DNA of 64,000 nucleotides from an uncultured Verrucomicrobiota bacterium (GCA_903953565.1 CAJBKE010000033.1:51210-115209); one strand, 5' to 3'. Shown: positions 36,190 to 56,684, counted from the stretch's first letter. Numbers and translations: made by a program. The notes: generated by a model from the sequence alone, not told the origin.

Positions 36190-36203
36190 GCCGCCCAGCG
36201 GGC

Positions 36204-36337
36204 GATGGGAGATAGAAGATCGCAGATAGTAGATCGGGGGCAGGCGGAGTCTTCAGGAGATTGGAGACAAGAGATGGTAGATCGGCGCCAATCTTCTGCA
36301 TCCCATCTTCCATATCCCAGCTACCATCTTCCAATCC
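36204..36337. repeat. Palindromic AGATGG/CCATCT word element upstream of four-helix-bundle gene 1
   Basis: Purine arm GATGGGAGATAGAAGAT...AGATGGTAGATCGG, then pyrimidine arm CCAATCTTCTGCATCCCATCTTCCATATCCCAGCTACCATCTTCC. About 85% similar to the element inside wzt (36968-37078). Confidence 0.8.
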
Positions 36338-36341
36338 TTCC

Positions 36342-36722
36342 ATGAGTATGAAGTTCGAGGATTTGGAGGCGTGGAGGGAGGCGCGCATGTTGAGCAAAGA
36401 CATCTACGCGCTCACTCGGACCGGCTCACTGTCAAAAGACCTTCGGTTATGCTCGCAGGTTCAAGCCGCAGCCGTATCCGTTATGTCGAACGTTGCCGAG
36501 GGCTTCGAAAGAACGGGCAACCAAGAGAAGTTGCATTTTTACAACATCGCTCGTGCTTCGTGCGGAGAGCTGCGCTCACAGCTTTATATCATCGAAGATG
36601 TTTACACAGAGTTATCAGCAAAAACTTCAGAACTTCGGGAAGGTGCCGAGTCTGTCGGGCGGCTGATCAGCGGCCTCATCGCAAGCACGCGACGGCGTGT
36701 GGCCGGGGCCGCGAAAGAGTAG
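36342..36722 (+). CDS. Four-helix-bundle protein (23S rRNA IVS protein / Avd family), copy 1
   Basis: MSMKFEDLEAWREARMLSKDIY ... QAAAVSVMSNVAEGFER ... FYNIARASCGELRSQL matches the TIGR02436/PF05635 signature. Confidence 0.85.
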   Translation: MSMKFEDLEAWREARMLSKDIYALTRTGSLSKDLRLCSQVQAAAVSVMSNVAEGFERTGNQEKLHFYNIARASCGELRSQLYIIEDVYTELSAKTSELREGAESVGRLISGLIASTRRRVAGAAKE

Positions 36723-36738
36723 ATGGGAGATGGAAGAT
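36721..36738. repeat. Right inverted-repeat arm of cassette 1
   Basis: AGATGGGAGATGGAAGAT is complementary (16/18) to ATCTTCCATATCCCAGCT at 36305-36322. Starts within the ORF stop codon. Confidence 0.65.
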
Positions 36739-36764
36739 CAGAGGTAAAAGATAAAAGAGTCACG

Positions 36765-38159
36765 ATGAACAAAACTGCCCAATCCCATCTGCTATCTACC
36801 GGCGCCGAAAGCGCCATTCTAACCCCAACCTCGGCCGCAGACGGCGAGGTGCTTGTTCGCGTCGAGGGCGTCTCGAAGAAATTCTGTCGCTCTTTGAAAA
36901 AGAGCCTGTGGTATGGACTGTGCGATATCGCGGGGGAACTTTCGCCCTTCGGGCGGCGCGATGTCGCGGGAGATAGTAGATTGAAGATGGTAGATCGGGC
37001 CCAATCTTCCATGTCCCATCTTCCATCTTCTGGCGCAGGGACCGCCCTATCTTCCATATCCCAGCTTCCATCTTCCTCACCGTCCCTTCGCGATGGCGAG
37101 TTCTGGGCGGTGAATGATGTTTCTTTCGAACTGCGCCGCGGGGAATGCCTCGGCTTGATTGGTCACAATGGGGCGGGGAAGACGACGCTACTCAAGATGC
37201 TCAATGGGTTGATCAAGCCGGATGCGGGGACGATCACCATGCGCGGGCGGGTTGGGGCGCTGATTGCGCTCGGGGCGGGGTTCAATCCGATTCTGACGGG
37301 ACGGGAAAATATCTACATCAACGGTTCGGTGCTGGGCCTTTCGAAAAAGGAAATCGACGAGAAGATCGACGAGATCATCGACTTTGCCGAGATCGGGGAA
37401 TTCATCGACATGCCGGTGCAGAACTATTCGTCGGGAATGCAGGTCCGATTGGGGTTCGCGGTGGCTACCGCATTGGATCCTGACATTTTGATTTTGGATG
37501 AGGTCTTGGCAGTAGGAGACGCAAGATTCCAGGCCAAGTGCCTTAAGCGCATCACGCAGATGTTCAGTCGTTGCTGCGTGATCTTTGTTTCGCATCAGGC
37601 TCATATCATTCAGATGATATGCAGTCGGGTGCTGTGGATGCGGAAGGGAAGGACTGTGGAGGACGGCGCGCCTACGGAGATCCTTCAAGCCTATCTGGCC
37701 GCCAGCGATGGTGATTCCACAAAAGAAGAGTCGGGAGCTGTTTTGGCCCCCGAAATCGCGCGCTTCCATTTGGACGTCGAGCATCCTCGTTTGAGCCTTG
37801 GCGATTCGTTGCATTGCTGCATTCACGTGAGCCTGTCGCGGCCAGTCGCATTTGGTCGGCTACTCGTATGTCTTTTGGACGTGGCGGATAGGTATGTCGC
37901 GCGCGCTACCTGTGACCTGCGCAAGACGGAATCCATGTCAGGTGATGTCAGTATTCGTGTCTGCCTCCAAGATCTGCGTTTGGCTGTTGGTGAATACAAA
38001 ATACAGATTGTTTGCTTCTCCAGTCATCCGGTTGCCCAGCTTGTAAACTATACCCATCCACGGACAGTATTTTGTGATTCCGACATTGTTTCGGAGGTTA
38101 AGTATCAGCCCGCTTCCTCTTGGGAGTTGGTCGAAAATAGTGGAGAGCGTTGGAAGTAA
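36765..38159 (+). CDS. wzt: ABC polysaccharide export ATP-binding protein with C-terminal glycan-binding-type domain
   Basis: Walker A GHNGAGKTTLLK, signature YSSGMQVRL, Walker B ILILDE. An extra ~170-aa C-terminal domain as in Wzt. ATG 36765 preferred. Confidence 0.85.
   Translation: MNKTAQSHLLSTGAESAILTPTSAADGEVLVRVEGVSKKFCRSLKKSLWYGLCDIAGELSPFGRRDVAGDSRLKMVDRAQSSMSHLPSSGAGTALSSISQLPSSSPSLRDGEFWAVNDVSFELRRGECLGLIGHNGAGKTTLLKMLNGLIKPDAGTITMRGRVGALIALGAGFNPILTGRENIYINGSVLGLSKKEIDEKIDEIIDFAEIGEFIDMPVQNYSSGMQVRLGFAVATALDPDILILDEVLAVGDARFQAKCLKRITQMFSRCCVIFVSHQAHIIQMICSRVLWMRKGRTVEDGAPTEILQAYLAASDGDSTKEESGAVLAPEIARFHLDVEHPRLSLGDSLHCCIHVSLSRPVAFGRLLVCLLDVADRYVARATCDLRKTESMSGDVSIRVCLQDLRLAVGEYKIQIVCFSSHPVAQLVNYTHPRTVFCDSDIVSEVKYQPASSWELVENSGERWK
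36968..37078. repeat. 111-nt palindromic word element inserted in frame in wzt
   Basis: GGGAGATAGTAGATTGAAGATGGTAGATCGGGCCCAATCTTCCATGTCCCATCTTCCAT...ATCCCAGCTTCCATCTTCCTC. Near-copy of the intergenic 36204-36337. Length is 37 codons with no stop. Confidence 0.8.
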
Positions 38160-38194
38160 AAGTAGGCGGCAATGGCACGGTAGAGCGTAAAATT

Positions 38195-39568
38195 ATGACT
38201 GAATCATCAACTAGAGAAGCAATGTGGGCGCAGTTTGTTCGCGAAAATAACTTCCGTGACATTGCGGAGGTTGGCGTGTGGAAGGGCGAATTCGCCAGGC
38301 ATCTGCTCCTAGAGTGCCAGCAGATTCGCAGCTATCTCATGGTCGATAGTTGGAGGCACCTTGAGGGCTGGAATAAGCCGTTTAATCTGAGCGACTCTCA
38401 GTTGGAGCAAGTTTACCAACAGGCTCTCTTGAACACCGAGTTTGCTAAAGAAAAGGTGCGCGTGTTGAGAGGGACAACCCTTGAGGAGCGAGGGAAGATC
38501 GCAGACGACAGTTTGGATTTTGTCTACATCGATGGTGATCACTCGCTCAGAGGCATCGTGATCGACGCGCTGAGCAGGTGGCCGAAGTTGCGCGCAGGTG
38601 GGGTGCTGGCTGGTGACGACTTTAGTGATACCGTGTGGCAGCACTCGCTGGAATTCGAACCTTCGTTGGTCAACCCTTTCATGAGGTATTTCGCCGATGC
38701 GGTTGGAGAACACTTGCACGTCTTGCCGTATAACCAATGTTACATACAAAAGTCTTGCTCGAGCGGCATTGGTCAGGCTCCTGCCGCTAGCGCGCAGCAC
38801 GGTTTATTGCCGCTCCTAAATATTTCCTCATTGAGCAGTGGTTCTGACAAGAACCGAGAACTGCAGCAGTTATTGGCGTTACCTAAGCGCTTAACAAAAG
38901 CGCTACTCCGTCGCAGTTCTGCTCGCTTTCGAGAGCGGGAGGCTATCACGCGCCACGGCGAACGTTTTCCGGAGTATTTCTCAAGAACGGGTATTGCATT
39001 TATTCATGTTCCGAAAGCGGCTGGTACCAGCATTTCACTAGCACTATATGGACTCGCCGTTGGACATCGTCGCCTCAGTGAGTGGCAAACAAGGTTTCCG
39101 TTTTCAATGAGGAAAGTAAGGACCTTGGCTATTGTTCGAGATCCGCTGGAGCGTTTCGTTTCTGCTTTCAACTTCCTGAAGGCAGGTGGGATGAACGATC
39201 TAGACAAGAATTTTGCGAATGCTCAACTGGCCGCTTTTAGCGGCCCAGCAGAGTTGGCGGAGGCGTTAGTGGACCCAATTTGCCAAGCCAAAGTGCTTGT
39301 CTATCCCCACTTCACGAGACAGGTGGATTTTGTGACAAATGCGTCTGGCGCCGTGGATATTGATTGTCTTGTCTGTCTTGAAGACCTTGCTGTGGCGGAG
39401 AAGTGGGCAGCGGAAAGGAGCAGATCCAAAGTAGTGTTTAAACAAATGAACGCTAATCCCATAGCGAAAGGAAAATTGCGATGGACGCCAGCTTCCTTAG
39501 ACGTGCTAAAGGCTATTTATCGGGAAGATTTTGAGCTGTATGAGGCAGCAAAGAACCTCTCAAGCTAG
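38195..39568 (+). CDS. Bifunctional class I SAM methyltransferase (N) / family-2 sulfotransferase (C)
   Basis: N-terminal: FVYIDGDHSLRGIVIDALSRWPKLRAGGVLAGDDF (Methyltransf_24-like). C-terminal: FIHVPKAAGTSI (5'-PSB) and IVRDPLERFVSAF (3'-PB) sulfotransferase motifs. Confidence 0.75.
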   Translation: MTESSTREAMWAQFVRENNFRDIAEVGVWKGEFARHLLLECQQIRSYLMVDSWRHLEGWNKPFNLSDSQLEQVYQQALLNTEFAKEKVRVLRGTTLEERGKIADDSLDFVYIDGDHSLRGIVIDALSRWPKLRAGGVLAGDDFSDTVWQHSLEFEPSLVNPFMRYFADAVGEHLHVLPYNQCYIQKSCSSGIGQAPAASAQHGLLPLLNISSLSSGSDKNRELQQLLALPKRLTKALLRRSSARFREREAITRHGERFPEYFSRTGIAFIHVPKAAGTSISLALYGLAVGHRRLSEWQTRFPFSMRKVRTLAIVRDPLERFVSAFNFLKAGGMNDLDKNFANAQLAAFSGPAELAEALVDPICQAKVLVYPHFTRQVDFVTNASGAVDIDCLVCLEDLAVAEKWAAERSRSKVVFKQMNANPIAKGKLRWTPASLDVLKAIYREDFELYEAAKNLSS

Positions 39569-39704
39569 CGAATGCCATGCCTCCGTTCTTCAGTCCGCCT
39601 TTGCTCGCTTTAGCGGAGGCGCTTGGAAAGGTTCTTAAGCCAATAATTCCCTTAAGCTTGTTTAATTGCAAAAATATCCAACCTCCAACGTTTGAAACCA
39701 CAAC

Positions 39705-40658
39705 GTGTATCTCTCGGTAATTATCTGCACCCATAATCCCCGGGAAGAGTTCTTGCAGAGAACGCTACAGAGCTTACGGAGTCAGACGCTCCCGGCGGAC
39801 CGTTGGGAACTACTGCTTATCGACAATGCTTCCACCAAATCACTCGCGGAACAATGGGACTTGTCTTGGCATCCATCCTCCCGGGTTGTCCGGGAGGATC
39901 GTCTTGGTTTAACCCAAGCTAGGTTGCGCGGTATCGATGAGGCTAAGGGCTCAATATTGGTCTTTGTGGATGACGATAATGTGTTGGCGCAGGATTACCT
40001 TCAGGTTTCTCTGGAAACAATCTCCCGCATGCCATGGCTCGGAGCTTTTAGTGGATCGACGGTGGGCGAATACGAAGTGCCGCTCCCGCTGTGGGCGTCT
40101 AACATGCCTATCCAATTAGCCGTGCGGGAAATTAAGCACGTGGCCTGGGGTTGCCTGCCGGGGACGCAGTCACTTCCATTTGCGCCGGTCGGTGCCGGAA
40201 TGGTAATAAGGCGGCAGGTTGCCGAACACTACTTGCGACAAGTTAAGAAGGACAACTTGCGCCAGTCTCTCGACCGCAAGGGCGACTTGTTATTGTCGGG
40301 TGGAGACAGTGATATGGCTTACTGCGCTTGCGAACTCGGATATGCGGTCGGCGTCTTCCCAGAGTTGTCACTGGTTCATATAATACCGAAACAGCGTCTC
40401 GAGGCCCCATATTTGCTGAAGCTCGCTGAGGGAATGGCTTTCTCCCACGCGATTTTGCGATTTATGTGGGACGGCGAATTACCGCCGGAACCGCAGACAA
40501 AAATAGAGTCTCGGTCCGTAAGGATTTTCAACGCTTACGCACGTTTCAGAACCCGCCTACGCGGCAAGCCGCAACCGACTTTCGACGAGCAATGGTATGC
40601 TGCTACGCAGACAGGTGTCTTGCGGGCACGGGAATTCATTTTGTCACTCAAAGCCTAA
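39705..40658 (+). CDS. Glycosyltransferase family 2 (paralog of 34179 and 54055)
   Basis: GTG start. LSVIICTHNPREEFLQRTLQSL, LLLIDNAST, FVDDDNVLAQDY. Confidence 0.85.
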   Translation: MYLSVIICTHNPREEFLQRTLQSLRSQTLPADRWELLLIDNASTKSLAEQWDLSWHPSSRVVREDRLGLTQARLRGIDEAKGSILVFVDDDNVLAQDYLQVSLETISRMPWLGAFSGSTVGEYEVPLPLWASNMPIQLAVREIKHVAWGCLPGTQSLPFAPVGAGMVIRRQVAEHYLRQVKKDNLRQSLDRKGDLLLSGGDSDMAYCACELGYAVGVFPELSLVHIIPKQRLEAPYLLKLAEGMAFSHAILRFMWDGELPPEPQTKIESRSVRIFNAYARFRTRLRGKPQPTFDEQWYAATQTGVLRAREFILSLKA

Positions 40659-40741
40659 GCAAGGCGGAGAATGATCCCCCAATCAGAAGGGATGTTCCTC
40701 TTGAGCCGCAGAAAAATAAGGGCGACGGTATTACAGTCGTC

Positions 40742-40855
40742 ATGAAAAGGACGATCGCCCTGATCGACTGGAACTGGATGGGGCACCATCCAACGTATTT
40801 CACGCATCCCGCGGCGGCGGTTGTAGTGTCAAAAGGTGTGGCATGGCGCAGTTAG
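40742..40855 (+). pseudogene. Truncated duplicate of the 5' end of the GT-B gene at 42040
   Basis: MKRTIALIDWNWMGHHPTYFTH then diverges and stops. 45 nt (40763-40807) match 42079-42123 at 44/45. Confidence 0.65.
40763..40807. repeat. 45-bp direct repeat, copy 1
   Basis: ATCGACTGGAACTGGATGGGGCACCATCCAACGTATTTCACGCAT, 44/45 identical to 42079-42123. Confidence 0.85.
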
Positions 40856-41092
40856 TCTCGTGAGATAAGGATTCCCAAGAACCACCGCCATAAATACAAC
40901 CACACGAGGCGGCTTTCCCACTTAAGTCACACGAACCCAGCGAGATTTGCAGCCGGCTGATTGGCTCCGCTCCAGCCAACGAACTTCGCATGCTAAACAG
41001 CAAAAGCTGCTCCAACAACCAACCAAATCCCTCATAAAACCCGTTCCAAAGAGCGGGGGCAGATCAAGTGTTTTCGCGTTATCGCTCCCCAG

Positions 41093-42013
41093 TTGTGGTT
41101 GCCTCTCATTGTGACTAGCATTTCAATCATCACGCCCAACTATAATTACGGGCACTTTCTCGAGCAGACGTTGCAAAGCGTGCTGTGCCAGCGTTACCCC
41201 ATGCTGGAATACATCGTGATGGACGATGGTAGCACTGATAACAGTGTAGAGATCATCAAGCGCTATGCCGACCGCCTGGCGCATTGGGAAACTGGTCCGA
41301 ATCGCGGACAATACGCTGTGATTACAGAGGGCTTCCGCAAATCCACAGGGGAGGTTATGGGCTGGCTGAACAGCGACGATATGCATCTGCCCTACACCTT
41401 AAAAGCCGTCGCCGAAATCTTCGAAGCTTTCCCGGAGGTGGAGTGGATCACGACGATGCAGCCCGCTTTCTGGGACTACAAAGGGATGCTCTTAGGTTGT
41501 GGCCATATCGACGGTTTCTCGAAGGAATCATTCTTGGATGGCCGAAATTTCTCGCCGCTGACAAACCGACCTGTCGATATAGGCAAAGGGATTAAGCTAC
41601 AAGGTTGCCTGCAGCAAGAATCGACCTTCTGGCGGCGCGCGCTCTGGGAAAAGGCAGGAGCTTATCTCTCACAAGACTACGGGAGCGCGGGAGACTTTGA
41701 ACTGTGGTGCAGGTTTCTGCGTTACGCGGAACCGTGCGGCGTAGCTACTCCCTTGTCTGGTTTCCGCCTACAAAACCAGCAGCAGACGGCTCAGCGCCAG
41801 AGCTACGCAGATGGATGTCTCAAGGCGCTGCGCCAGGCGAGGCGCGATCTTGGATACAAACCCAACGCGATGAGATCGGAAGCTTTTCGGCGAAACTTGA
41901 CGCGCCCGGCGCGCCTTTTTGCCCGATATGACTACGAGGGAACAAGAATCGTCCGTGCGAATATCGACGGGCCGGAAGCGAGCTGGCGGAGAGAGCGTCA
42001 CCGTTTTCGCTAA
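41093..42013 (+). CDS. Glycosyltransferase family 2
   Basis: ISIITPNYNYGHFLEQTLQSVLCQ, VMDDGSTDNS, NSDDM. The start may be GTG 41111. Confidence 0.85.
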   Translation: MWLPLIVTSISIITPNYNYGHFLEQTLQSVLCQRYPMLEYIVMDDGSTDNSVEIIKRYADRLAHWETGPNRGQYAVITEGFRKSTGEVMGWLNSDDMHLPYTLKAVAEIFEAFPEVEWITTMQPAFWDYKGMLLGCGHIDGFSKESFLDGRNFSPLTNRPVDIGKGIKLQGCLQQESTFWRRALWEKAGAYLSQDYGSAGDFELWCRFLRYAEPCGVATPLSGFRLQNQQQTAQRQSYADGCLKALRQARRDLGYKPNAMRSEAFRRNLTRPARLFARYDYEGTRIVRANIDGPEASWRRERHRFR

Positions 42014-42039
42014 GATAGGAAGAGTTGCAAAGCAGAACG

Positions 42040-43275
42040 ATGAATCCACACAAGTCCGACAACCGCACCGTTGCGCTCATCGACTGGAACTGGATGGGGC
42101 ACCATCCGACGTATTTCACGCATTTCGCGGCAGCGATGGCCGAGGCTGGGGCCGATGTGGTGCCGTTCTGTGCGGATCCGGAAGACCTTCTCAAGAGACT
42201 CGGGAATGAATCGCTGCCGGCCGCGGTGCGCGGACGCATTGCGAAGCCGGTGCGGGTGGCGAGCCCCGTGCCCTCGCAGTTTCGTCCCACTCGCTGGCGC
42301 GGGCACTATAACGCGTTGCGCTTCTTCGGCGGCCTGGGAAAGCAGTCGCGAGCATGGGAGCGTCGTCACGGCCGCAAGATCGATCTAGTCTTCTTTGCCT
42401 GCATTTATGACCGGCAATTCGAAAACCTTCCGTTTGCCGAGCGTTGCTTCGGATATCCGTGGTCGGGCCTGTATCTCCATGCGCGTTCGTTCCGCATGCC
42501 AAGTTCGCCGATTCCAGGCTGGTGGGGGCTACCATGTCCGGAGAAGATTTTTACGGGCCAGAAGCTTCGCTCGGTGGCAGTTCTAGACGAAGGGGCAGTG
42601 GAGCCTTTGCGCGAACTTGCTGGTGGTAAGCCTGTTTTCGTTTTCCCCGATATTACTGATGCCGGCACCGAATCTGCAGGCCCGAGTCTTGGAGCCAAGA
42701 TCAAAGCCTTTGCCGATGGGCGACCGGTGGTTTCCCTGAGCGGTTACTTGCAGAAGACAAAGGGCATCGTGGAGTTTGTCGCCGCTGCAGGAGCGCCGAG
42801 CATGGATGGTGTGGTCTTTGTGCTGGCCGGCTCGATAAGCTGGCACGGCTTCAGCGCGGCCGAGCGTGAAGAGCTGCAGCGGGCGATCGAGTCGACTCCG
42901 AATATCTTCACGCATCTGATGGAGTTGCCCGAACCAGCCATGAATAGCATCATGGAGTCATCGGACGTCATTTTTGCGGCTTACCGGGATTTTCCGAACA
43001 GTAGCAATGCGCTGACCAAGGCCGCGGTATTCGAGCGGCCAATCTTGGTGAGTGAAGGGCACCTGATGGGTGAGCGGGTGCAGAAGTTCGGATTGGGCGA
43101 GGTGGTCCCGGAAGGCGATGTTGGACGGATTGTCGCGACTCTTGAGAGAATGTTGACGGCCGGCTACCCGGACTCATTGCGACAGCGCGCCAAGTGGGCC
43201 GAATATCGAGAGGCACACTCTGTGGACCGGCTCGCTGAGGTGATACGGAATCTGATCGCGGCGTCGGCGGGCTGA
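42040..43275 (+). CDS. Glycosyltransferase, GT-B fold (GT1/GT4-like)
   Basis: 412 aa from ATG 42040. C-terminal half with SNALTKAAVFERPILVSEG...GLGEVV is typical of the nucleotide-sugar-binding domain. Confidence 0.7.
   Translation: MNPHKSDNRTVALIDWNWMGHHPTYFTHFAAAMAEAGADVVPFCADPEDLLKRLGNESLPAAVRGRIAKPVRVASPVPSQFRPTRWRGHYNALRFFGGLGKQSRAWERRHGRKIDLVFFACIYDRQFENLPFAERCFGYPWSGLYLHARSFRMPSSPIPGWWGLPCPEKIFTGQKLRSVAVLDEGAVEPLRELAGGKPVFVFPDITDAGTESAGPSLGAKIKAFADGRPVVSLSGYLQKTKGIVEFVAAAGAPSMDGVVFVLAGSISWHGFSAAEREELQRAIESTPNIFTHLMELPEPAMNSIMESSDVIFAAYRDFPNSSNALTKAAVFERPILVSEGHLMGERVQKFGLGEVVPEGDVGRIVATLERMLTAGYPDSLRQRAKWAEYREAHSVDRLAEVIRNLIAASAG
42079..42123. repeat. 45-bp direct repeat, copy 2
   Basis: Inside the 5' end of the GT-B gene. 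See 40763-40807. Confidence 0.85.
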
Positions 43276-43314
43276 TTTTCGATTTGCCGCGGCGAAGATA
43301 CAGAGAGTGTTGTC

Positions 43315-44205: not shown

Positions 44206-44211
44206 TTTTAC

Positions 44212-46496: not shown

Positions 46497-46608
46497 GTGA
46501 GAGGGACGAGGCGGAGGCGGAAACTGAGGTCGGAAGTCGGAGATTATATGACAGAAAAGAGGTCGGCGGTAGACGGTGTTCAGTTTGCGGACTGGTGAAG
46601 ACAGAGTC

Positions 46609-47526: not shown

Positions 47527-47684
47527 GCTATAAGGGAGAGGTGTTTGGGGAGAAGCTATAGACGGGAGGCACGGGGCCAGAGGACGGAGATCGGAGAGCG
47601 GTGGTTCGGTAACACGGTGTTGTGGTAAGCGGAGATGAGCGGGCACAGGCCGGAGCACAGAGGTGGTATAGTGCGCGATAAACT

Positions 47685-48749: not shown

Positions 48750-48866
48750 GAGGAGGCGGGTAGGAGGCCATAGGCTTTAGGCTATAGGTGCAGCACAGCT
48801 GCGGACCAAAAGACCAAGAGACTAAAAGACAAAGAGTCGAAGAGCTAAAAGCGGAAAGCTACAGTC

Positions 48867-49427
48867 ATGACAATACCCGGAATCATTCAGCGTTGGCGGC
48901 GGTGGTGCTTGGCGCGGCGGGGGCTGGCGCTGGATCGGTCGTGCTATGTTGGGCCGCAGGTTTCGCTCGGGCCGGACAATGCGGCGGTGCGCGGCGAGGT
49001 CACCGCAGGTTCATACTGCGAGATTAATCAGGGCGTGGAACTTAATGCTTTCGGCGGATCAATCCGATTGGCCGACCGTGTGTGGCTCGGGCCCTATGCC
49101 GTGATCTATGGCCATGGCGGTGTTGAGATCGGTGAGTGGACGATGGTGTCGATGCACGCAACCGTTGTATCATCGAATCACGCCATCCCAGGCATGGATC
49201 GGTGCATGCGTTGGGAAAAAGATGTGCTGTTGCCGACGAAGATCGGCCGCGATGTGTGGATCGGGGCGAATGCGGTGATTCTCGGCGGCATAACCATCGG
49301 CGATGGTGCGGTGGTTGCAGCGGGAGCGGTGGTGACGAACGATGTGGAACGCGGGGCGATTGTGGCGGGGAATCCGGCGCGCGAGATGCGCAGACGAAAG
49401 GCAATAGGCGAGGGACGAGAGGACTGA
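48867..49427 (+). CDS. Hexapeptide-repeat (LbH) acetyltransferase
   Basis: VWIGANAVILGGITIGDGAVVAAGAVVTNDVERGAIVAGNPA. Confidence 0.85.
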   Translation: MTIPGIIQRWRRWCLARRGLALDRSCYVGPQVSLGPDNAAVRGEVTAGSYCEINQGVELNAFGGSIRLADRVWLGPYAVIYGHGGVEIGEWTMVSMHATVVSSNHAIPGMDRCMRWEKDVLLPTKIGRDVWIGANAVILGGITIGDGAVVAAGAVVTNDVERGAIVAGNPAREMRRRKAIGEGRED

Positions 49428-49553
49428 GGCGGTAAGGAACGAAGAGACCAAAAGACCAAGAGACAAACGAAGTGCGGCAGAGCCCCAGAGATCAGCAACC
49501 AGAGGCCAGATGGCGGAGGGCGGAGAACAGATGACGAATGAGTGCGGAAGGCG

Positions 49554-50345
49554 ATGAATCTGCCGGCTAAAACCAAAGAATCGATGAACGATCTCAAGTT
49601 GTTGTCCATAATCATCCCCGCCCGGGATGAGGAGGGATGCATTGCTTCGACAGTGGAGCACTTGCACCTCGAGTTGGAGTTACGCGGGGTGCCGCATGAG
49701 ATTGTCGTGGTCGATGATGGCTCGACGGATCGCACTTGGAACATCCTTCAGGCTGAGGGGGAAAAGTTGCCTGAGCTGAAGCCAATCAAGAACGAGGGTC
49801 CGCATGGATTCGGGCGGGCTATCGTCAAGGGGTTGGATGCCATGACTGGTGATGCGGTGGTCATCATGATGGCGGATGAGTCAGATGATTGCCGGGATGT
49901 GGTGCGCTATTGGGAGAAGCTGAACAAGGGTTACGACTGCGTGTTCGGTAGTCGCTTCATGAAGGGAGGTGGAACGATCGATTACCCACCAATCAAGCTC
50001 TTCATGAACCGGATGGCCAATGCCTTCGTCCGCTTCATGTTCCGGCATGGTCTCAACGACACGACCAACGCTTTCAAGGCTTACCGCAAAGCAGTGATTG
50101 ATGGCATTCGTCCGATTCTTTCGCCGCATTTCAACATCACCGTCGAGTTGCCGCTCAAGGCCATTGTGCGTGGCTACAGTTTCACGGTCATCCCAATCAC
50201 GTGGCGCAACCGCCGCCATGGCGTGGCCAAGCTCAAGATCAAGGAAATGGGCAGTCGCTACCTTTTCATCTGTCTTTACGTGTGGTTGGAGAAATATTTT
50301 TCGAGAGGGGACTATTTGAAAAACGAAGAAGGCAAGAGGCAATAG
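49554..50345 (+). CDS. GT2 polyprenyl-phosphate glycosyltransferase (GtrB/DPM1/ArnC-like)
   Basis: LSIIIPARDEEGCI, VVDDGSTDRT, MADESDD, and a C-terminal TM segment YLFICLYVWLEKYF. Confidence 0.8.
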   Translation: MNLPAKTKESMNDLKLLSIIIPARDEEGCIASTVEHLHLELELRGVPHEIVVVDDGSTDRTWNILQAEGEKLPELKPIKNEGPHGFGRAIVKGLDAMTGDAVVIMMADESDDCRDVVRYWEKLNKGYDCVFGSRFMKGGGTIDYPPIKLFMNRMANAFVRFMFRHGLNDTTNAFKAYRKAVIDGIRPILSPHFNITVELPLKAIVRGYSFTVIPITWRNRRHGVAKLKIKEMGSRYLFICLYVWLEKYFSRGDYLKNEEGKRQ

Positions 50346-50424
50346 GTGACAGGCGATAGGGAAGAGAGGCACTACGCGCTAGGTGAGAGGCAAGGGGAGA
50401 GAGAAATGAATAACGTGGAGAACA

Positions 50425-50446
50425 GGCTAGAGGCGAGAGGCTATAG
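50425..50446. repeat. Left inverted-repeat arm of cassette 2
   Basis: GGCTAGAGGCGAGAGGCTATAG. Its reverse complement occurs at 50827-50848 with 21/22 identity. Confidence 0.85.
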
Positions 50447-50463
50447 ACGAGAGGGGAATAGCG

Positions 50464-50832
50464 ATGGGTAAGGGAGGCTTTCGAGGATTGAAGGTTTGGC
50501 AGCGGGCGAAAGCACTGGCTGTCGATGTTTATGCTGCCGTGAAGAGTTCTCCGGAGTTGGCCAAAGATTTCGGGCTGCGTGATCAGATGCAGCGCGCGGC
50601 GGTAAGTGTCTGCAGTAATATTGCCGAAGGAGATGAAAGGGACACGGACAAGGATGCGGTTCGCTTCTTCTACATCGCAAAAGGTTCTGTTGCGGAGCTG
50701 ATCACGCAGCTCGAGATAGCCAAAGACGCGCAGCTTATCGAGTTATCGAGGGCGGACGCCCTGATCAAAGAAGCCGAGGAGATTGGCTCCATGCTTGGCG
50801 CGTTGATCAAAGCCCGCGCCGCATGCCTATAG
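50464..50832 (+). CDS. Four-helix-bundle protein (23S rRNA IVS protein / Avd family), copy 2
   Basis: GFRGLKVWQRAKALAVDVY ... RAAVSVCSNIAEGDER ... FFYIAKGSVAELITQLEIA. Confidence 0.9.
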   Translation: MGKGGFRGLKVWQRAKALAVDVYAAVKSSPELAKDFGLRDQMQRAAVSVCSNIAEGDERDTDKDAVRFFYIAKGSVAELITQLEIAKDAQLIELSRADALIKEAEEIGSMLGALIKARAACL

Positions 50833-50848
50833 CCTCTCCCCTCTAGCC
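50827..50848. repeat. Right inverted-repeat arm of cassette 2
   Basis: CTATAGCCTCTCCCCTCTAGCC. Contains the ORF stop codon TAG (50830-50832). Confidence 0.85.
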
Positions 50849-50863
50849 TCCTTCCCCCATCTC

Positions 50864-52345
50864 ATGTCTACGCGTTCAGCTCTAACGGCCATCGTCTGGT
50901 TGGCCCTCGCCTTGAGCGCGATCGTCTGGATCATGCGGATATCCAGTGCAGTCGCGCTGGATCGTCCTTTTCTTGGCAACACCAGCGGATGCGAAGAGGA
51001 GGCGCTGTTCTCGGTATGGAAAGCGGCCAATGGATACGAGGTCTACAACAACCCCTGGTTACCGCCCTTCAGTGCGAGTTACTTCGGTTGGCTATTTTAC
51101 CAAGTCTACGGTTGGTGGGCAAAGGCCGGGTTGGCGGTCAGTGGCCTCGAAGACGCTTGGCTGCCGACCTTTACGCGTATCTTCACTCTGATTGGTTTGC
51201 TCGCCTGTATTGGGGTTTTTTACCGCCTTCTGCAGACCGGAGCCAACAGGGGGGCTACATTCCCGCCGAGCCTGCTCTTCGGTTTGGCGGCTCTGGTCTT
51301 CATCAATCCCCTGTTCCATTGGTGGGCCTTCACCACGCGAGCAGACGTGTGGGCTCTGGCCTGGGAGTTGGCTGCGCTGTTGGCTGCTTTTTGCTATGCG
51401 AAGAGCGGACGAGCGCGCGCCGTGGTTCTGGTCGGGGTCTTCGCCTTCCTTGCGTGGTCATTCCGGCAGACCAATATCTCGGTGTTGGCGGGCTTTGGTC
51501 TGTGGCTCCTCGTTAATCGGCGCTGGAAGGTGTTGCTGCCCATGGTGGCGTCAATGGCTGTTGCTTTCGGTGTGACCATGGCGGTCCTGGGGATGAACTT
51601 CATCGACAGTGCTTTCACCGCCAATGCCCTCAGCGGTGACATGCGAAGCTCGGTGGCGATCGCCAATGCATCCAGTGCGCTCACCAAGGACCCGCTTTTG
51701 ACGCTCGCGCTCGGCGCCGCTTTCGTTCTGGTTTTTTTCGCGGGCAAATGGTGGCACAACAACGCATCACGGCTGGCTTTTCTTGTCGCGGCCACGTCCG
51801 TCTTTCTTGCGGCAGCGCTTGCCGCCAAGGTTGGTGCGAGTTCAAACTACTACCTGCCGCCGGCTGCGCTGGTGCCGCTGTTTGTTCTTGTAGCGCTATC
51901 CCGCTGCGAGTTTCCGAGTTTTCTCAACGCGGGTTTCATTGGCGCCGGAGCTGCCGGAATCGGCCTGGCTAGCGCTTTGGTGCTGTCGGGAGCGAGTGGC
52001 AACCTGCGCTCGCCGGGGGACGAGCGTCTGCATGAAATGCGGGCGCTGCGCCGGGAATTGCGCGAGCCGGTCTTTAGCACTGACCGCGTGGTCAATTTGC
52101 CGTGGATTTTGGGTAATGGGCCGGAGAGCTACGTGTTCGGCTATGCCTATCAAAGAATGCTGGCAGCCAAGCCGGAGAAATTTACCGGTGGCACAATCGC
52201 CGATCTCCTCCGAGGCGGGCGCTTCAGCACCTTGATCACGCTTGAGGATAGCGCCTCTTATGTCGCCACAGCGGAAGAGTTGGCGGATTTCACAAGCGCA
52301 GGGGGAACGGTGAGGGAAGTGCGTAAGCGCGAAGGCGGGCTGTAA
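50864..52345 (+). CDS. Polytopic membrane protein, putative GT-C-type glycosyltransferase (ArnT/PMT-like)
   Basis: 493 aa, more than 10 TM helices. Follows a GtrB-like GT2. The function is inferred from context and topology only. Confidence 0.55.
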   Translation: MSTRSALTAIVWLALALSAIVWIMRISSAVALDRPFLGNTSGCEEEALFSVWKAANGYEVYNNPWLPPFSASYFGWLFYQVYGWWAKAGLAVSGLEDAWLPTFTRIFTLIGLLACIGVFYRLLQTGANRGATFPPSLLFGLAALVFINPLFHWWAFTTRADVWALAWELAALLAAFCYAKSGRARAVVLVGVFAFLAWSFRQTNISVLAGFGLWLLVNRRWKVLLPMVASMAVAFGVTMAVLGMNFIDSAFTANALSGDMRSSVAIANASSALTKDPLLTLALGAAFVLVFFAGKWWHNNASRLAFLVAATSVFLAAALAAKVGASSNYYLPPAALVPLFVLVALSRCEFPSFLNAGFIGAGAAGIGLASALVLSGASGNLRSPGDERLHEMRALRRELREPVFSTDRVVNLPWILGNGPESYVFGYAYQRMLAAKPEKFTGGTIADLLRGGRFSTLITLEDSASYVATAEELADFTSAGGTVREVRKREGGL

Positions 52346-52369
52346 GCAGGACAGAATGTTGGCAGTAGG

Positions 52370-52386
52370 CGGTAGTCAGTCGGCAG
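52370..52386. repeat. Left inverted-repeat arm of cassette 3
   Basis: CGGTAGTCAGTCGGCAG, complementary (14/17) to 52871-52887. A related word GCCGTAGTCGGTAGACAGTTGGCAGC occurs at 52481-52506. Confidence 0.5.
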
Positions 52387-52523
52387 AAAAAAATAAGTCA
52401 GCAGGCGTTGGTTGACGGTAGTCATCACAAGGCGAGTCAAACATGGCGTGCTTTGAAGATAGCAAAAGAGTCAGGGGTTGGCCGTAGTCGGTAGACAGTT
52501 GGCAGCAATTACAGAGACGAGCA

Positions 52524-52874
52524 ATGGCGGGATTTGAAGATTTGGAAGTTTGGCAACGGGCGGTGGCGCTTAGTGCGGATGTGTATCGTCGAATGGCTTC
52601 CTGCAAAGACTTCGGATTTCGTGATCAGATCACGCGATCTGCTCTTTCGATACCGTCCAACATAGCGGAGGGCATGGAGCGAAGCTCCGTCCCTGATCGC
52701 TCGAAGTTTCTGGACTACGCTCGTGGTTCTTGCGGCGAGTTTCGAACTCAAGCAACCGTTGGGACTAAAGCCGGCTTGCTCGAGTCAGCGCTCGCCGAAG
52801 AGTGGATCGCTGCAAGCCGCACTTTATCGGCGATGATCCAAGGGCTTATCCGCTCTCTGAAAACCGCAAACTGA
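52524..52874 (+). CDS. Four-helix-bundle protein (23S rRNA IVS protein / Avd family), copy 3
   Basis: MAGFEDLEVWQRAVALSADVY ... RSALSIPSNIAEGMER ... FLDYARGSCGEFRTQ. Confidence 0.9.
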   Translation: MAGFEDLEVWQRAVALSADVYRRMASCKDFGFRDQITRSALSIPSNIAEGMERSSVPDRSKFLDYARGSCGEFRTQATVGTKAGLLESALAEEWIAASRTLSAMIQGLIRSLKTAN

Positions 52875-52887
52875 CGACTGATGACCG
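52871..52887. repeat. Right inverted-repeat arm of cassette 3
   Basis: CTGACGACTGATGACCG. Spans the cassette stop codon and the ATG of the next GT2 gene. Confidence 0.5.
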
Positions 52888-53945
52888 ACGACTCTACGAA
52901 GCCTTCGGTTTCCGTGATCATTCCTGCCTACGGGCGGGTGGAGCCGCTGAAGTATACTTTGCGCAGCGCGGCGGTGTGCGCGCACGAGTCAGGGGTTCAT
53001 TGCGAAATCATCGTGGTCGATGACGGCTCCGAGCCGTCGATCGAGGAGCAGTTGGCCGGTTTCGATGTGGGGCATCCCGTGCGCTTTGTTCGCCAGGCGA
53101 ACCAAGGATCGATCGTCGCGCGGCTCACCGGCTTTCACGCCGCGACGGGGAAGTATGTGTTCTTCCTCGATTCCGATGATGTGGTTCAGCCGGACAAGCT
53201 CGGCGCGCATCTGCGAGCCATGGAAGAGAGCGGCGCTGATGTGAGCTACAGCGACTCGGCGGAAGCCAAGCTTGAGGCGGACTACGGAGTGTCTTTCGGT
53301 GCGGCGACCACACATTTTCCAACCGTGGACAGTGCATTGGATCTTTTGGTCAGGATACAGCCCGCGCCTTACAGTCCGGTTTATCGTAGATCTTATTTAG
53401 CCAAAGCCTTGGACAGCCCGATGATTCCGATTCACCGGATATACGATCCCTCGGGTGATGTGTGGCTCTATCGTGCCGCAGCCATGGTGCCGGGCAAAGC
53501 GGTGAGGGTTCGAGGCCATCTTGCCGCGACCGGTCCGCACGAAGAGAACCGTTTCAGTTTGTGTTGGGAAAAGCTTGGAGTGGCCTCCCTTGGTATCGAC
53601 GAGGCTGTGATGGCAAGTTGTCCGATGACTGCTGAAACGGAATCATTTCGGAGCGCAGTGGGCGAGGTGGCCTTCCGCTCATGGCGGATGCTTCCGGCGG
53701 ATGTGTTGCCGCAATTCGATCGACGCATGCTTGCGCTATGGCGCCAGGCTCCACGACAGCGCCCGAAGCAGATGGGTGGACGCTCTTTCCGCATGGTCGC
53801 GCGGTTGCTGGGTTGGGTGGGTGCCGGGCGATTGTTCCGTCGCTTGCAGCGGCCGACGTATGCGCAGTGCAAGACCTTGCGGGATGAGGGGGAATTTGCG
53901 GAGTTGGTGGCGAAGCTGCCCGCGGCGCGGGGGCATGAGGCGTGA
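52881..53945 (+). CDS. Glycosyltransferase family 2
   Basis: VSVIIPAYGRVEPLKYTLRS, VVDDGSEPS, FLDSDD. Confidence 0.8.
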   Translation: MTDDSTKPSVSVIIPAYGRVEPLKYTLRSAAVCAHESGVHCEIIVVDDGSEPSIEEQLAGFDVGHPVRFVRQANQGSIVARLTGFHAATGKYVFFLDSDDVVQPDKLGAHLRAMEESGADVSYSDSAEAKLEADYGVSFGAATTHFPTVDSALDLLVRIQPAPYSPVYRRSYLAKALDSPMIPIHRIYDPSGDVWLYRAAAMVPGKAVRVRGHLAATGPHEENRFSLCWEKLGVASLGIDEAVMASCPMTAETESFRSAVGEVAFRSWRMLPADVLPQFDRRMLALWRQAPRQRPKQMGGRSFRMVARLLGWVGAGRLFRRLQRPTYAQCKTLRDEGEFAELVAKLPAARGHEA

Positions 53946-54054
53946 GGCAAGAGGCAAGAGGCGCCAGGAAGGAGGCTAGGCACGGATCAACGCGGATTCG
54001 CGCGGATTATTCTTCGTGCGCACACGCACGAAGCAAAGTGATTGCTTGGGGAAC

Positions 54055-55077
54055 ATGAGTGAGAGCGCGGTAAAGATAGCGGCGAGCGTCTTGATTCCGA
54101 CGCATAATCCGCGGCGGGACTATCTCGCGCGGGTGGTAGAAGCGTTGCGCGGCCAGACTCTACCGCGCGAGCGGTGGGAGTTGCTCGTCGTCGATAACAG
54201 CTCGCGGGAGAAATTAGAAGGAAGAGTGGATATCGGGTGGCATCCGAGTGCGCGGGTGGTGTGGGAGGAAAGGCTTGGGCTTACGTTCGCGCGGCTCCGG
54301 GGTTTTGCCGAAGCAAAGGGTAAGCTCATTGTGATGGTCGATGATGACAATGTGCTCGCGCCCGATTATCTCGAAGCGGCTGTGCGTATTGCGCAGGAGC
54401 AACCCGCACTTGGAGCATTTGGAGGGAAATGTCTGCCTGAGTTTGAAGTGGAGCCGGAGCCTTGGCTCGAGGCTAGAGGCAAGGGGCTGGGGCTTCGCGA
54501 TCGTGGCGAACGGGAAGAGTTCTTCCCGGAAGCCGCGGTCGCGGAGGGTGGGAAAGTGGGAAAGTGGGAAGGTGGCAAGGTAAAGCGCGCGGTGCGCCAG
54601 TTTCCGGATTGTGCGCCGATTGGGGCAGGGATGGTCTTGCGGCGGGACGCCGCTCGGGCTTATGCCGAGCGGCTTCAGGTTCGAGGCGAGAGGCAGGAGG
54701 CACGAGGTAAAGAGACGATTACGGATAGGAAAGGCGACAGTTTGGCGTCGGGTGGAGACAATGACATTTGCCTTACGGTGATTGAGGAGGGTTGGCAGGT
54801 CGGGTATTTGCCGCAGTTGCAACTCATGCATTTGATTCCGGAGCGCCGCATGACGCTGGATTACCACAAGCGCATGGCACGGGATTCGATGAAAAGTTTT
54901 ATCCTGATGCTTGATCAGCACGGGATCCGTCCTTGGTCGGCCATGCCGAAGTGGACGTTGCCGTTGCGGGTGGCGAGTGACTGGTGGCGGGTCAAGCCAT
55001 GGCAAGGACCAGGGCAGTCGCTGAGCTTTTGGGGAAACGTCGGGATGTATGAGGGTCGCGCGGCCTTGCCGTGCTAA
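54055..55077 (+). CDS. Glycosyltransferase family 2 (paralog of 34179 and 39705, with word-repeat segments)
   Basis: ATG 54055. ASVLIPTHNPRRDYLARVVEAL, LLVVDNSS, MVDDDNVLAPDY. About 23 aa longer than its paralogs. Confidence 0.8.
   Translation: MSESAVKIAASVLIPTHNPRRDYLARVVEALRGQTLPRERWELLVVDNSSREKLEGRVDIGWHPSARVVWEERLGLTFARLRGFAEAKGKLIVMVDDDNVLAPDYLEAAVRIAQEQPALGAFGGKCLPEFEVEPEPWLEARGKGLGLRDRGEREEFFPEAAVAEGGKVGKWEGGKVKRAVRQFPDCAPIGAGMVLRRDAARAYAERLQVRGERQEARGKETITDRKGDSLASGGDNDICLTVIEEGWQVGYLPQLQLMHLIPERRMTLDYHKRMARDSMKSFILMLDQHGIRPWSAMPKWTLPLRVASDWWRVKPWQGPGQSLSFWGNVGMYEGRAALPC
54548..54579. repeat. Tandem degenerate 8-mer (GTGGGAAA x4) inside the GT2 coding sequence
   Basis: GTGGGAAA GTGGGAAA GTGGGAAG GTGGCAAG, encoding GKVGKWEGGKV. 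Confidence 0.8.
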
Positions 55078-55252
55078 GGTGAGAGGCATGAGGCACTAGG
55101 TAAACAGGCGTTAGTCCCGAGGCGTAAGGCGAGCAGGCGAAAAAGCCGAGAGAACAGAAATCAAAGGTCAGGGGTCGGAGATAGGAGTTCGCACAACAGA
55201 CCTCAGAAACCAGATGCCGGAGGCCGGAGAGCGAAAGACAGAGGACGTAAAG

Positions 55253-56263
55253 ATGCAGGTGAAGCTCACAGAGAAGGAGATTGCCACGGCGCTGGCGCGC
55301 ATACCACCGCCGCCAGGCCCGCGTCCCCCGATCACGGCGGGCGCAGTGGTTTATTGGACATGGCATTACCCGAAGCTCGTCCGGCGCGATGGGGCGCGTG
55401 CGCATTGGGAGGCGTGGCTGGGACGCCGGCGTTTTGTGCGGGCCTTGCGGGACCACAATCCCGAGCCGCCAGCCGGTGTGACCAGGGAAAACCCGCTTGT
55501 GGTCTCGCTTCTCGCGGGTCGCAAACACTCCGCATTAGCCGCACTTGCGCTGCTCTCGTTGCAGCAAAACACGCAAAGGCCGGTCCATCCGGTTGTGCAC
55601 GATGACGGAACACTTACTGTCGCACACCGTGACGAATTAAAGCGCTTCTTTCCGTCGACGCATTTTGTCTCCACCGACGAGATGTGCGTGGCTTTGGACC
55701 GCGTGATCCCCGAGCGGTCTTTCCCTGTTCTTCGTGGCCTTCGCAAAGGCTACATGCACCTGCGAAAACTCACGGACATCCATGCCTCGGGACGAGGGTG
55801 GACACTGGTGATGGACAGTGATGTGATCTTCTATCGCCGACCCGAGGAGCTTCTCCACGCGGTTGATGGATGCGAATGGGGACACATGGTCGACTGCCAG
55901 ACCAGCTACGGCTGTGATGTGAGTTTGCTGCGCGACTTGTCCGGCTTGAATGTGCATTCGCGCCTGAATGCCGGCCTTCTAAACATCAAAAGCTCCGATG
56001 TTGACTGGGAATTCCTTGAGTATGCGGCTGGCGCGATCCTGGCCAAAGCCGGCTTCTCCTATTACCTCGAGCAAGCACTGCTTGCCGTCCTCATGGCGAA
56101 ACACGGCGCCCGCGCATTCGACGCCGGACAGTATCTGGTTAATCCGACGGAGACCCAGTCGCGCGAACAACGCGAAGTTGCGCACCATTATGTGGACCGC
56201 TCGGTTCTTCACCTTTACCGGTTCGCGTGGCAGGGAATCTTGGGGCAGGGTGAAAGGCGATAG
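55253..56263 (+). CDS. Uncharacterised GT-A-like (nucleotide-diphospho-sugar transferase-like) protein, paralog A
   Basis: ATG 55253. LVMDSDVIFY (DxD) and YYLEQALLAVLMA. Clear paralog of 56689..57687. Confidence 0.6.
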   Translation: MQVKLTEKEIATALARIPPPPGPRPPITAGAVVYWTWHYPKLVRRDGARAHWEAWLGRRRFVRALRDHNPEPPAGVTRENPLVVSLLAGRKHSALAALALLSLQQNTQRPVHPVVHDDGTLTVAHRDELKRFFPSTHFVSTDEMCVALDRVIPERSFPVLRGLRKGYMHLRKLTDIHASGRGWTLVMDSDVIFYRRPEELLHAVDGCEWGHMVDCQTSYGCDVSLLRDLSGLNVHSRLNAGLLNIKSSDVDWEFLEYAAGAILAKAGFSYYLEQALLAVLMAKHGARAFDAGQYLVNPTETQSREQREVAHHYVDRSVLHLYRFAWQGILGQGERR

Positions 56264-56280
56264 GCGCTAGGCGAGAGGCG
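56255..56280. repeat. Left inverted-repeat arm of cassette 4
   Basis: AGGCGATAGGCGCTAGGCGAGAGGCG. The reverse complement of 56657-56682 matches 23/26. Contains the stop codon of the upstream gene. Confidence 0.75.
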
Positions 56281-56366
56281 GAAGAGGAAACAGGCGATAG
56301 GTGGCTAGGCGACAGGGGAAACAGGCGCTGGGCGATAGGTAAAACTAGGCGAGAGAAAATACGATA

Positions 56367-56684
56367 ATGGGTAAACGGGGATTTAGGGATTTGAAGGTTT
56401 GGCAACGGGCGAAGGCGCTGGCTGTCGAGGTTTATGCTGCGGTGAGGAGATCACCAGATTTGGCGAAGGAGTTTGGGCTGCGCGATCAGATGCAGCGCTC
56501 TGCCGTTAGCGTTTGTAGCAACATTGCGGAGGGGGACGAAAGAGACATGGATAAGGACGCGGTGCGCTTCTTTTATATGGCAAAAGGTTCGGTCGCAGAG
56601 TTAATCACACAACTCGAGATCGCGAAGGACGTCCGCGCCTCCTGCCTAAAGCCCATCGCCTCTTGCCTAGAGCCTATTGCCTGA
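56367..56684 (+). CDS. Four-helix-bundle protein, copy 4 (C-terminally truncated; possibly decaying)
   Basis: About 80% nt-similar to copy 2 through QLEIAKD. The last helix is then replaced by repeat-encoded ASCLKPIASCLEPIA. Confidence 0.7.
   Translation: MGKRGFRDLKVWQRAKALAVEVYAAVRRSPDLAKEFGLRDQMQRSAVSVCSNIAEGDERDMDKDAVRFFYMAKGSVAELITQLEIAKDVRASCLKPIASCLEPIA
56657..56682. repeat. Right inverted-repeat arm of cassette 4
   Basis: CGCCTCTTGCCTAGAGCCTATTGCCT. The ORF stop TGA follows at 56682-56684. Confidence 0.75.

Follow-up and report, generated by a model that had tools for sequence, protein, structure and literature searches.

What is a protein family of 23S ribosomal RNA (rRNA) intervening sequences (IVSs) doing, four times over, between the genes of a polysaccharide operon? 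This question is raised by a stretch of 64,000 nucleotides from an uncultured Verrucomicrobiota bacterium (GCA_903953565.1, CAJBKE010000033.1:51210-115209), which is called here the window and whose first letter is position 1. From ~33 to 64 kb the window consists of a co-directional, + strand polysaccharide cluster of exosortase type, and four paralogous + strand open reading frames (ORFs) of the PF05635 family, c1 to c4, are located in its spacers. Analysis of these loci revealed that the unit is a cassette, namely a PF05635 gene set within inverted short tandem arrays, mostly of 7 nt, which are G/purine-rich on the 5' side and C/pyrimidine-rich from the stop codon onwards. It seems rather probable that one self-contained cassette of ~420-430 bp is present here in four copies, three of them intact and c4 truncated, and that this cassette represents the IVS type in an mRNA operon and works by the mechanism proposed below.

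The cassette genes

36342-36722, + strand: c1 ORF, 126 aa, PF05635, between wzm (ABC-2 permease, 35296-36189) and wzt (ABC ATPase)
50464-50832, + strand: c2 ORF, 122 aa, PF05635 at 119 bits
52524-52874, + strand: c3 ORF, 116 aa, PF05635
56367-56684, + strand: c4 ORF, 105 aa, PF05635, 3'-truncated

The PF05635 scores of c1 to c4 were 94.8, 119.2, 98.3 and 99.3 bits (cut-off 33.8), and the NCBIfam model TIGR02436 gave 96-123 bits for c2-c4 (cut-off 24). No further copy of the ORF was found in the window by tblastn. The original prediction, made by a model from the sequence alone, had described four four-helix-bundle paralogs between same-strand glycosyltransferase and ABC genes, and had assigned them to the IVS proteins and to Avd of diversity-generating retroelements (DGRs). 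Their number, position and strand are as described and the first assignment holds, but Avd proper was rejected at 34.6 bits against the 80-bit cut-off of the NF033474 equivalog model. The DGR reading was likewise discarded, given this score and the lack of any reverse transcriptase (RT) among ~50 scanned ORFs; no template/variable repeat pair was found nearby. As for anti-phage defence, PADLOC gave no match for c1-c4 and this candidate was also set aside.

The AlphaFold model of c2 is a four-helix bundle (pLDDT 95.6) whose best structural matches are Xcc0516 (2GSC, TM 0.87/0.92) and BT_0352 (2RLD, TM 0.81/0.91), followed by Avd (4DWL, TM 0.76-0.86). In this search five chains, A-E, came back for 2GSC as well as for 2RLD, and the literature describes 2GSC as a homopentamer (PMC4990558); our own c2 model is a monomer. 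The homologs are mostly basic (median pI 8.9), with c2 acidic to neutral (pI 6.3). Close matches of c2 carry the names Chthoniobacterales, Opitutaceae or Nibricoccus, and the PF05635-type family as a whole comprises ~36,800 clusters at 50% identity.

Regarding selection, dN/dS was 0.019 for c2/c4, 0.063 for c3 and its counterpart in L094, and 0.088 for c1 and that in L105 (L-numbers denote loci used for comparison), and the cassette proteins evolve under purifying selection. Codons 1-90 of c4 are homologous to c2 (87% at the aa level), the last ~30 codons have been lost and the protein tail is a translation of the right-arm repeats. Since the orthologous site in the relative L106 holds an intact gene of 119 aa, c4 derives from a deletion. 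A length of 150-250 aa, with an extension at the N or C terminus, is seen in many representatives of the family, and gene calls in it may often include read-through into flanking repeat arrays, as in c4.

Inverted heptad arms in the window

36291-36324 / 36719-36752, + strand: c1 arms, 34 nt, 79% complementary
50424-50446 / 50827-50849, + strand: c2 arms, 23 nt, 96% complementary
52364-52386 / 52871-52893, + strand: c3 arms, 23 nt, 78% complementary (weak)
56255-56280 / 56657-56682, + strand: c4 arms, 26 nt, 88% complementary

The repeat search recovered every arm pair that had been proposed and, as had also been noticed, all four cassette ORFs end with a stop codon in or at the right arm. The next gene begins 4-43 nt past this stop, and the arm-to-arm span is 420-434 nt (~420 nt for c3, measured from the inner arm). 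Arm scores were compared with composition-preserving shuffles (n = 500 per cassette), as suggested with the original prediction. They amounted to 14 for c1, 20 for c2 and 17 for c4 against a shuffle mean of ~7, and 0/500 shuffles reached each of these values; c3 did not stand out, and its values are given where the reading is weighed. When every left arm was scored against every right arm, the matrix was diagonal-dominant save for c3. The view that the arms differ between cassettes yet stay complementary within each one stands for c1, c2 and c4 and is weak for c3, and it is far stronger across the 79 loci described below than in the window itself. Folding was the other check that had been suggested: in whole-cassette RNA folds the arm stem closes both the minimum free energy and the centroid structures of all four, with z-scores of -3.66 (c2), -3.40 (c1), -2.99 (c4) and -2.07 (c3).

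The arms are made of tandem 7-nt repeats, for example AGGCGAT AGGCGCT AGGCGAG, and are arranged as follows:

36199-36341, + strand: c1 left flank, purine-rich heptad array Pu1 (36199-36290) and pyrimidine-rich Py1 (36291-36341), which is the inner left arm
36719-36807, + strand: c1 right flank, Pu2 (36719-36760) pairing with Py1, and Py2 (36775-36807) pairing with Pu1
50330-50455, + strand: c2 left heptad arrays, AGGCNNN type, which start where the upstream GT2 gene has its stop codon
50827-50863, + strand: c2 right arm, pyrimidine heptad array from within the stop codon to the ATG of the next gene (50864)
52358-52508, + strand: c3 left end, partly duplicated, with outer arm copy 52358-52389, and inner arm 52477-52508 of GGCAGT/GTCGGT heptads
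52871-52893, + strand: c3 right arm, which overlaps both the stop codon and the beginning of the GT2 gene that follows (ATG 52881)
56255-56351, + strand: c4 left heptad arrays; the left arm 56255-56280 contains the upstream-gene stop codon 56261-56263
56636-56682, + strand: c4 right arm, pyrimidine heptad array with two 21-nt copies

In c1, Py2 overlaps the likely start of wzt at 36765. The local hairpin of Pu2 and Py2 is better than shuffles (z = -3.4), and that of Pu1 and Py1 is no better (z = -0.5). The 81-bp internal duplication reported for c3 is real, but what is duplicated is the left end: 119 nt separate the arm copies, and a copy of the first 18 nt of the ORF, at 52443-52460, is 81 nt from the ORF start. 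The original prediction had missed that the arms are built of heptads, that most spacers hold solo arrays, that c4 is truncated and that wzt contains an ORF-less copy.

Architecture across the gene family

The comparison was extended to 80 loci with homologs 44-65% identical to c2, 79 of which were scored for arms. They come from Verrucomicrobiota, Burkholderiales, Acidobacteriota, Bacteroidota, Desulfobacterota, Clostridia, Planctomycetota, Methanophagales and others, that is, from many bacterial phyla and an archaeon. Each locus was scored by the best inverted repeat joining its upstream flank to the surroundings of its stop codon, and cross-locus arm pairs, which are likewise purine-rich against pyrimidine-rich, were the control. 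The mean score was 16.2 for same-locus pairs versus 8.2 for cross-locus ones, which answers the caveat that low-complexity purine-rich and pyrimidine-rich words can mimic pairing. The 95th percentile of the control was exceeded by 50/79 loci and the 99th by 25/79. Moreover, the arms of 21/31 viral contigs (IMG/VR) exceeded the 95th percentile.

A best period of 7 or 8 nt was found in 31/79 upstream flanks versus 9/336 control segments, and array density was 0.97 per kb at cassettes versus 0.10 per kb elsewhere in the loci. The repeat units of different loci are unrelated (e.g. GGTCATG, AGGTAAT, AGTGCCC, GGGCGTA, AGTGTTAA), and G exceeds C upstream with C exceeding G downstream in 59/77 loci (p ~3e-21). 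The cassette architecture therefore belongs to the gene family across phyla: the units vary by locus, and complementarity and polarity are kept. Both neighbours were on the same strand in 41/66 loci, with median gaps of 70-80 nt, and the neighbours were enriched for nucleotide-sugar and polysaccharide genes. A search for the sarcin-ricin-loop motif found no rRNA-embedded copy among the 80 loci.

Assortment, turnover and decay in relatives

Relatives of the wzm-wzt junction, where c1 lies, were taken from a metagenome scan with Wzm. The junction holds a c1-type cassette in L081, L082, L105, L118 and L119 and a c3-type cassette in L094 and L115. It is empty in L088 and L090-L093, which are empty sites of the kind that the original prediction had recommended looking for. 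Strains with 98-99% identical Wzm have c1 at the junction, a 94% relative has a c3-type cassette there (80% to c3, 35% to c1), and a 91% relative has a c1-type cassette with a changed arm layout. Further away, the 67% relative L087 (L087:4860-5260) shows a truncated, divergent PF05635 pseudo-ORF of a third type between (GAGGTCA)4 and (TGACCTC)n, and in a 66% relative only pyrimidine heptads are left and the ORF is gone. In relatives at 55-59%, wzm and wzt are adjacent and the site is empty, and lineages at 40% have a distant PF05635-family member at the junction. The L087 pseudo-ORF was missed by tblastn with c1-c4; ORF-only censuses will undercount decayed cassettes.

The cassettes assort independently of their neighbours in related genomes, where some copies are decayed and some sites are empty. 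Cassettes of c3 type were found in at least three contexts and those of c2 type in two. Between c3 and L106, where the context is different, homology begins at ~52440, in the duplicated left end, and ends at 52893, the end of the right arm. By this homology the c3 unit is 52440-52893, an extent due to the duplication of the left end.

One-gene insertions and deletions among relatives break inside arrays. L120 (1366-1926) is without the 349-aa gene 55214-56263, and the junction falls within the AGGCNNN repeats of 55078-55213 / 56255-56366; the GT2 gene 52881-53945 is absent in L114. The arrays may act as joints for the gain and loss of gene modules in a mosaic glycan locus, and the wzm-wzt junction is a general insertion hot spot. 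Between the c3-type cassette and wzt, L094:860-1121 and L115:2979-3564 contain a two-gene module encoding proteins of 132 and 73 aa, which looks as though it might be a toxin-antitoxin pair.

Comparison with known systems

ORF-bearing IVSs of 23S rRNA, whose ORF is S23p and whose size is ~0.4-0.75 kb, occur in Leptospira, Coxiella burnetii, Xanthomonas and Brucella. Our comparison rests on the published description of the Coxiella element, which has 428 nt, lies in helix 45 of 23S rRNA and carries a 28-bp terminal stem and an S23p (PF05635) ORF; about three tandem GACAGAT heptamers, whose number varies by strain, lie just 5' of this ORF, and RNase III cleaves at the first repeat (PMC4990558). 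The cassettes share with it the protein family, the size class (428 nt versus 420-434 nt), terminal inverted repeats with a stem of at least 20 bp around the ORF (the c3 arms being weak), tandem heptamers of variable copy number directly 5' of the ORF, and the occurrence of decaying copies. The idea of an IVS architecture inside an mRNA operon is thus upheld in size, stem, ORF family and heptamers, and the IVS-like interpretation is supported in architecture. There are also differences. The cassettes sit in the spacers of protein-coding operons and not in helix 25 or 45; cleavage of the stem would here sever the mRNA, whereas the cut pieces of rRNA stay together in the ribosome; and the ORFs are under purifying selection, with 3/4 intact. 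Because the layout recurs around the gene family across many phyla, the classic rRNA IVS looks like one landing place of a widespread cassette.

Small inverted-repeat elements between operon genes, forming hairpins in mRNA, are also known as Correia repeat enclosed elements (CREE) in Neisseria, the mRNA hairpin of which is cleaved by RNase III, and as enterobacterial repetitive intergenic consensus (ERIC) sequences or intergenic repeat units (IRU). Rickettsia palindromic elements (RPEs) insert in frame within coding sequences. These elements have fixed consensus termini and leave target-site duplications and, to our knowledge, none of them has an ORF. The cassettes are like Correia and ERIC elements in being inverted-repeat units between operon genes, and an ORF-less hairpin in frame inside wzt (36960-37085) resembles an RPE, but the cassettes differ from all three in their variable tandem-heptad arms and conserved gene. 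Judged as Correia-like elements or MITEs (miniature inverted-repeat transposable elements), they have the inverted arms and carry an ORF; the ORF-less hairpin fits better.

A further comparison is offered by Avd, a pentamer whose five protomers all take part in gripping an RNA stem-loop adjoining its own gene; the 3' end of the avd gene, for its part, is paired with RNA further downstream (10.1101/2023.10.23.563531). The cassette proteins share its four-helix-bundle fold by homology, but they lie below the equivalog cut-off, with neither an RT nor template/variable repeats nearby.

Finally, intergenic heptamer arrays have been described as GGGAATC in Xanthomonas, as GGGGA(C/T)T (short tandemly repeated repetitive sequences, STRR) in Nostoc, and as TAACTGA in Beggiatoaceae, Cyanobacteria and Bacteroidetes, and in Xanthomonas 70-75 convergent (inverted) pairs are among them (PMC4692102, PMC4679880). 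As in our locus, they are head-to-tail 7-nt units in the spacers of co-directional genes, nearer the end of the upstream gene and variable in length among relatives. The published accounts draw no connection with PF05635, whereas the inverted pairs described here enclose a PF05635 gene, and here the unit sequence is not fixed within the genome. The searchable literature treats PF05635 as uncharacterised, and no paper in it joins PF05635 genes outside rRNA to inverted heptamer arrays, although absence there is not proof of novelty. The link between PF05635 and inverted heptamer arrays appears to be undescribed in this literature.

Heptad arrays beyond the cassettes

35133-35295, + strand: solo purine-rich heptad array in an operon spacer, beginning at the upstream stop codon
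46497-46575, 47527-47684, 48750-48866 and 49428-49541, + strand: similar solo arrays in operon spacers
53946-54015, 55078-55213, 59941-59976 and 60739-60816, + strand: similar solo arrays in operon spacers
36960-37085, + strand: ORF-less Pu-Py heptad hairpin, in frame in wzt and almost a copy of the left flank of c1
54469-54718, + strand: in-frame purine heptad/octad arrays inside the GT2 ORF 54016-55077, at two loop sites

Purine-rich arrays of the same kinds as the arms occupy most other spacers of the operon, where there is no ORF. What is distinctive at the four ORFs is a reverse-complement, pyrimidine-rich array directly 3' of the gene. All 11 purine arrays of the spacers start exactly at the upstream stop codon (35133, 46497, 47527, 48750, 49428, 50346, 53946, 55078, 56264, 59941 and 60739), and these starts read TAGGCG.., TGAGGC.. 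or TAAGGT... The units resemble Shine-Dalgarno (SD) sequences, GAGG having a frequency of 17 per kb in spacers versus 6.9 per kb over the window, and the right arms, with their pyrimidines, resemble anti-SD sequences. Such arrays at stop codons hint that they may serve to retain ribosomes or to couple translation.

Arrays are also found within coding sequences. The hairpin in wzt adds ~42 aa to a variable N-terminal loop; the insert is 16 aa longer in the close relatives L081/L105 and absent from the distant L088/L091, and its local fold is no better than shuffles (z = -0.95). Both array sites of the GT2 gene are hypervariable in the L114 ortholog (L114:1775-2320; 466 aa versus 353 aa), which has longer and different array mosaics at both sites, including GTTGGCA units of c3 type beside a c3-type cassette. 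Furthermore, GTGACGA-type and then GGAGGTC-type heptad arrays lie at 56833-56906, in the N-terminal coding part of the ORF 56689-57687, and the stretch 56758-56869, which covers the GTGACGA array, has ~91% nucleotide identity in L106 and L121. The spacer upstream of a carbamoyltransferase gene (30039-30279) contains pyrimidine-rich heptad arrays on the sense strand, with a polarity opposite to that of the rest of the operon, and the GTGACGA array at 56838-56869 has its reverse complement in one block of this spacer.

The host operon

The cluster encodes many GT2 and GT4 glycosyltransferases, the ABC-2 permease and ATPase (wzm/wzt), acyl- and methyltransferases and a polysaccharide deacetylase, and is preceded by two exosortase EpsH genes and the carbamoyltransferase gene. 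The remaining window is ordinary chromosome, with glutamate synthase, ribosomal protein S1, an amidase and two tRNAs. These two tRNAs were the only Rfam matches in the window, so no rRNA and no known RNA family for the cassettes were found in it. The GC content falls to 0.50 in 38000-40000, around a methyltransferase/sulfotransferase gene, which is followed by a 434-nt spacer without heptad arrays (40659-41092); this block and spacer may represent a separate acquisition or an internal promoter region.

Proposed mechanism and its alternatives

How could such a cassette work? We propose that cassettes would spread or recombine as DNA modules, with the arrays as the likely recombination substrate. 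Within an operon the cassette would be co-transcribed in the mRNA, and its arms would form a stem of 23-34 bp from which the ORF is looped out. This stem would have the length of an RNase III substrate and, by analogy with rRNA IVSs, RNase III could cut it. Cleavage might segment the polycistronic RNA, or might control whether the cassette ORF and the gene directly behind the right arm are translated. Cleavage or unwinding of the stem would couple cassette expression to operon punctuation and to the translation of this following gene. The protein probably binds its own repeat stem, as the Avd pentamer does with the RNA beside its gene.

Several observations weigh against this reading. The c3 arms score 8 against a shuffle mean of 6.9 (p = 0.23). 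In a count meant to tell RNA-level from DNA-level selection, G.U exceeded A.C among the arm mismatches weakly at most (113 versus 98, p = 0.34); when only arms of at least 80% identity were considered the numbers were 55 versus 33 (p = 0.025), with nothing at higher identity. In five close Opitutales cassettes 98.4% of cells were paired, with 2 compensated pairs, and 148/500 shuffles equalled this. The pairing of the arms may then be a property of their birth, or be kept up at the DNA level, and not be due to RNA selection. In addition, since the arrays fall into families, the c2 and c4 right arms are also complementary to solo arrays at distances of kilobases, and that of c4 scores 20 against the array 59941-59976. 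The hairpin copy tolerated within the wzt coding sequence argues against efficient cleavage of every such stem. As for DNA mobility, no transposase, integrase or RT was present among ~50 scanned ORFs of the window, and no target-site duplication was seen by eye at the c2 arm ends, where no systematic search was made and array edges are fuzzy. In Coxiella, S23p was considered by the authors as probably not produced in vivo (PMC4990558).

Some of these points lead to an alternative at the DNA level, which we regard as rather unlikely, though it deserves to be taken seriously. The cassettes could be MITE- or cassette-like selfish elements, whose arrays serve as terminal inverted repeats or recombination substrates and whose RNA stem is incidental and unprocessed; recombination between arrays, or a factor encoded at another place, would move them. 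The c3 homology with L106, which stops at the right arm in a different context, would be expected of such an element, as would presence, absence and type swap at a single junction, an ORF-less hairpin copy in frame in wzt, a one-gene indel breakpoint within arrays and the lack of a clear G.U over A.C asymmetry. Nevertheless, the window contains no transposase, and the c2 arm ends showed no target-site duplications in the unsystematic inspection by eye. The strict polarity of the ORF relative to the G- and C-rich arms and the stop codon at the right arm suggest a constraint from expression, and the stems of rRNA IVSs of this type are real RNase III substrates.

Another explanation places the function in trans. 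The pentamer would be a binder of heptad repeats in RNA or single-stranded DNA, and the purine arrays at stop codons would be operators that tune translational coupling, processing or stability along the glycan operon. AGGCNNN arrays of c2/c4 type do start exactly at the upstream stops of most spacers, arrays are enriched around ten-fold around PF05635 genes, and the units with their SD-like character and the right arms with their anti-SD-like one would suit such a role. The contacts of the Avd pentamer with RNA through repeated identical sites and the mostly basic homologs point the same way. However, c2 itself has a pI of 6.3, the heptad units of other genomes are not SD-like, and common descent of the whole cassette could explain that protein and arrays share units. 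This explanation is, in our opinion, quite improbable.

Lastly, that ordinary accessory genes merely coincide with slippage-born simple repeats found generally in this genome's spacers, their complementarity being a by-product of purine-rich and pyrimidine-rich words, is hardly credible and largely refuted here: solo arrays are indeed abundant in ORF-less spacers, the c3 arms fail to beat shuffles and right arms match distant arrays too, but purine-rich/pyrimidine-rich controls across loci score half as high, shuffles never reach c1, c2 or c4, sense-strand pyrimidine arrays occur essentially only right after the ORFs, and the layout recurs with unrelated units in many phyla and in viral contigs.

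Significance

The origin of ORF-bearing rRNA IVSs and the role of their protein have been in question since the early 1990s. If the rRNA IVS is no more than one niche of a cassette whose main home is operon spacers, there are places in which the protein is intact and under selection and can be investigated, and the cassettes supply concrete substrates for work on RNase III and on RNA binding. On the same condition, the enigmatic intergenic heptamer repeats of several phyla would gain a candidate partner, and mosaic polysaccharide loci a candidate device for shuffling or punctuation. A broader version, which must be taken as speculative and unlikely in its full extent, is that PF05635 pentamers belong together with heptad arrays in a single system of wide distribution. 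The protein would read 7-nt repeats in RNA or single-stranded DNA, arrays at stop codons would punctuate operons by way of translational coupling or of processing and join shuffled modules, especially in surface-glycan loci, rRNA IVSs would be accidental landings of this system, and its footprints would be seen in the long-puzzling intergenic heptamers of Xanthomonas, cyanobacteria, Beggiatoa and Bacteroidetes.

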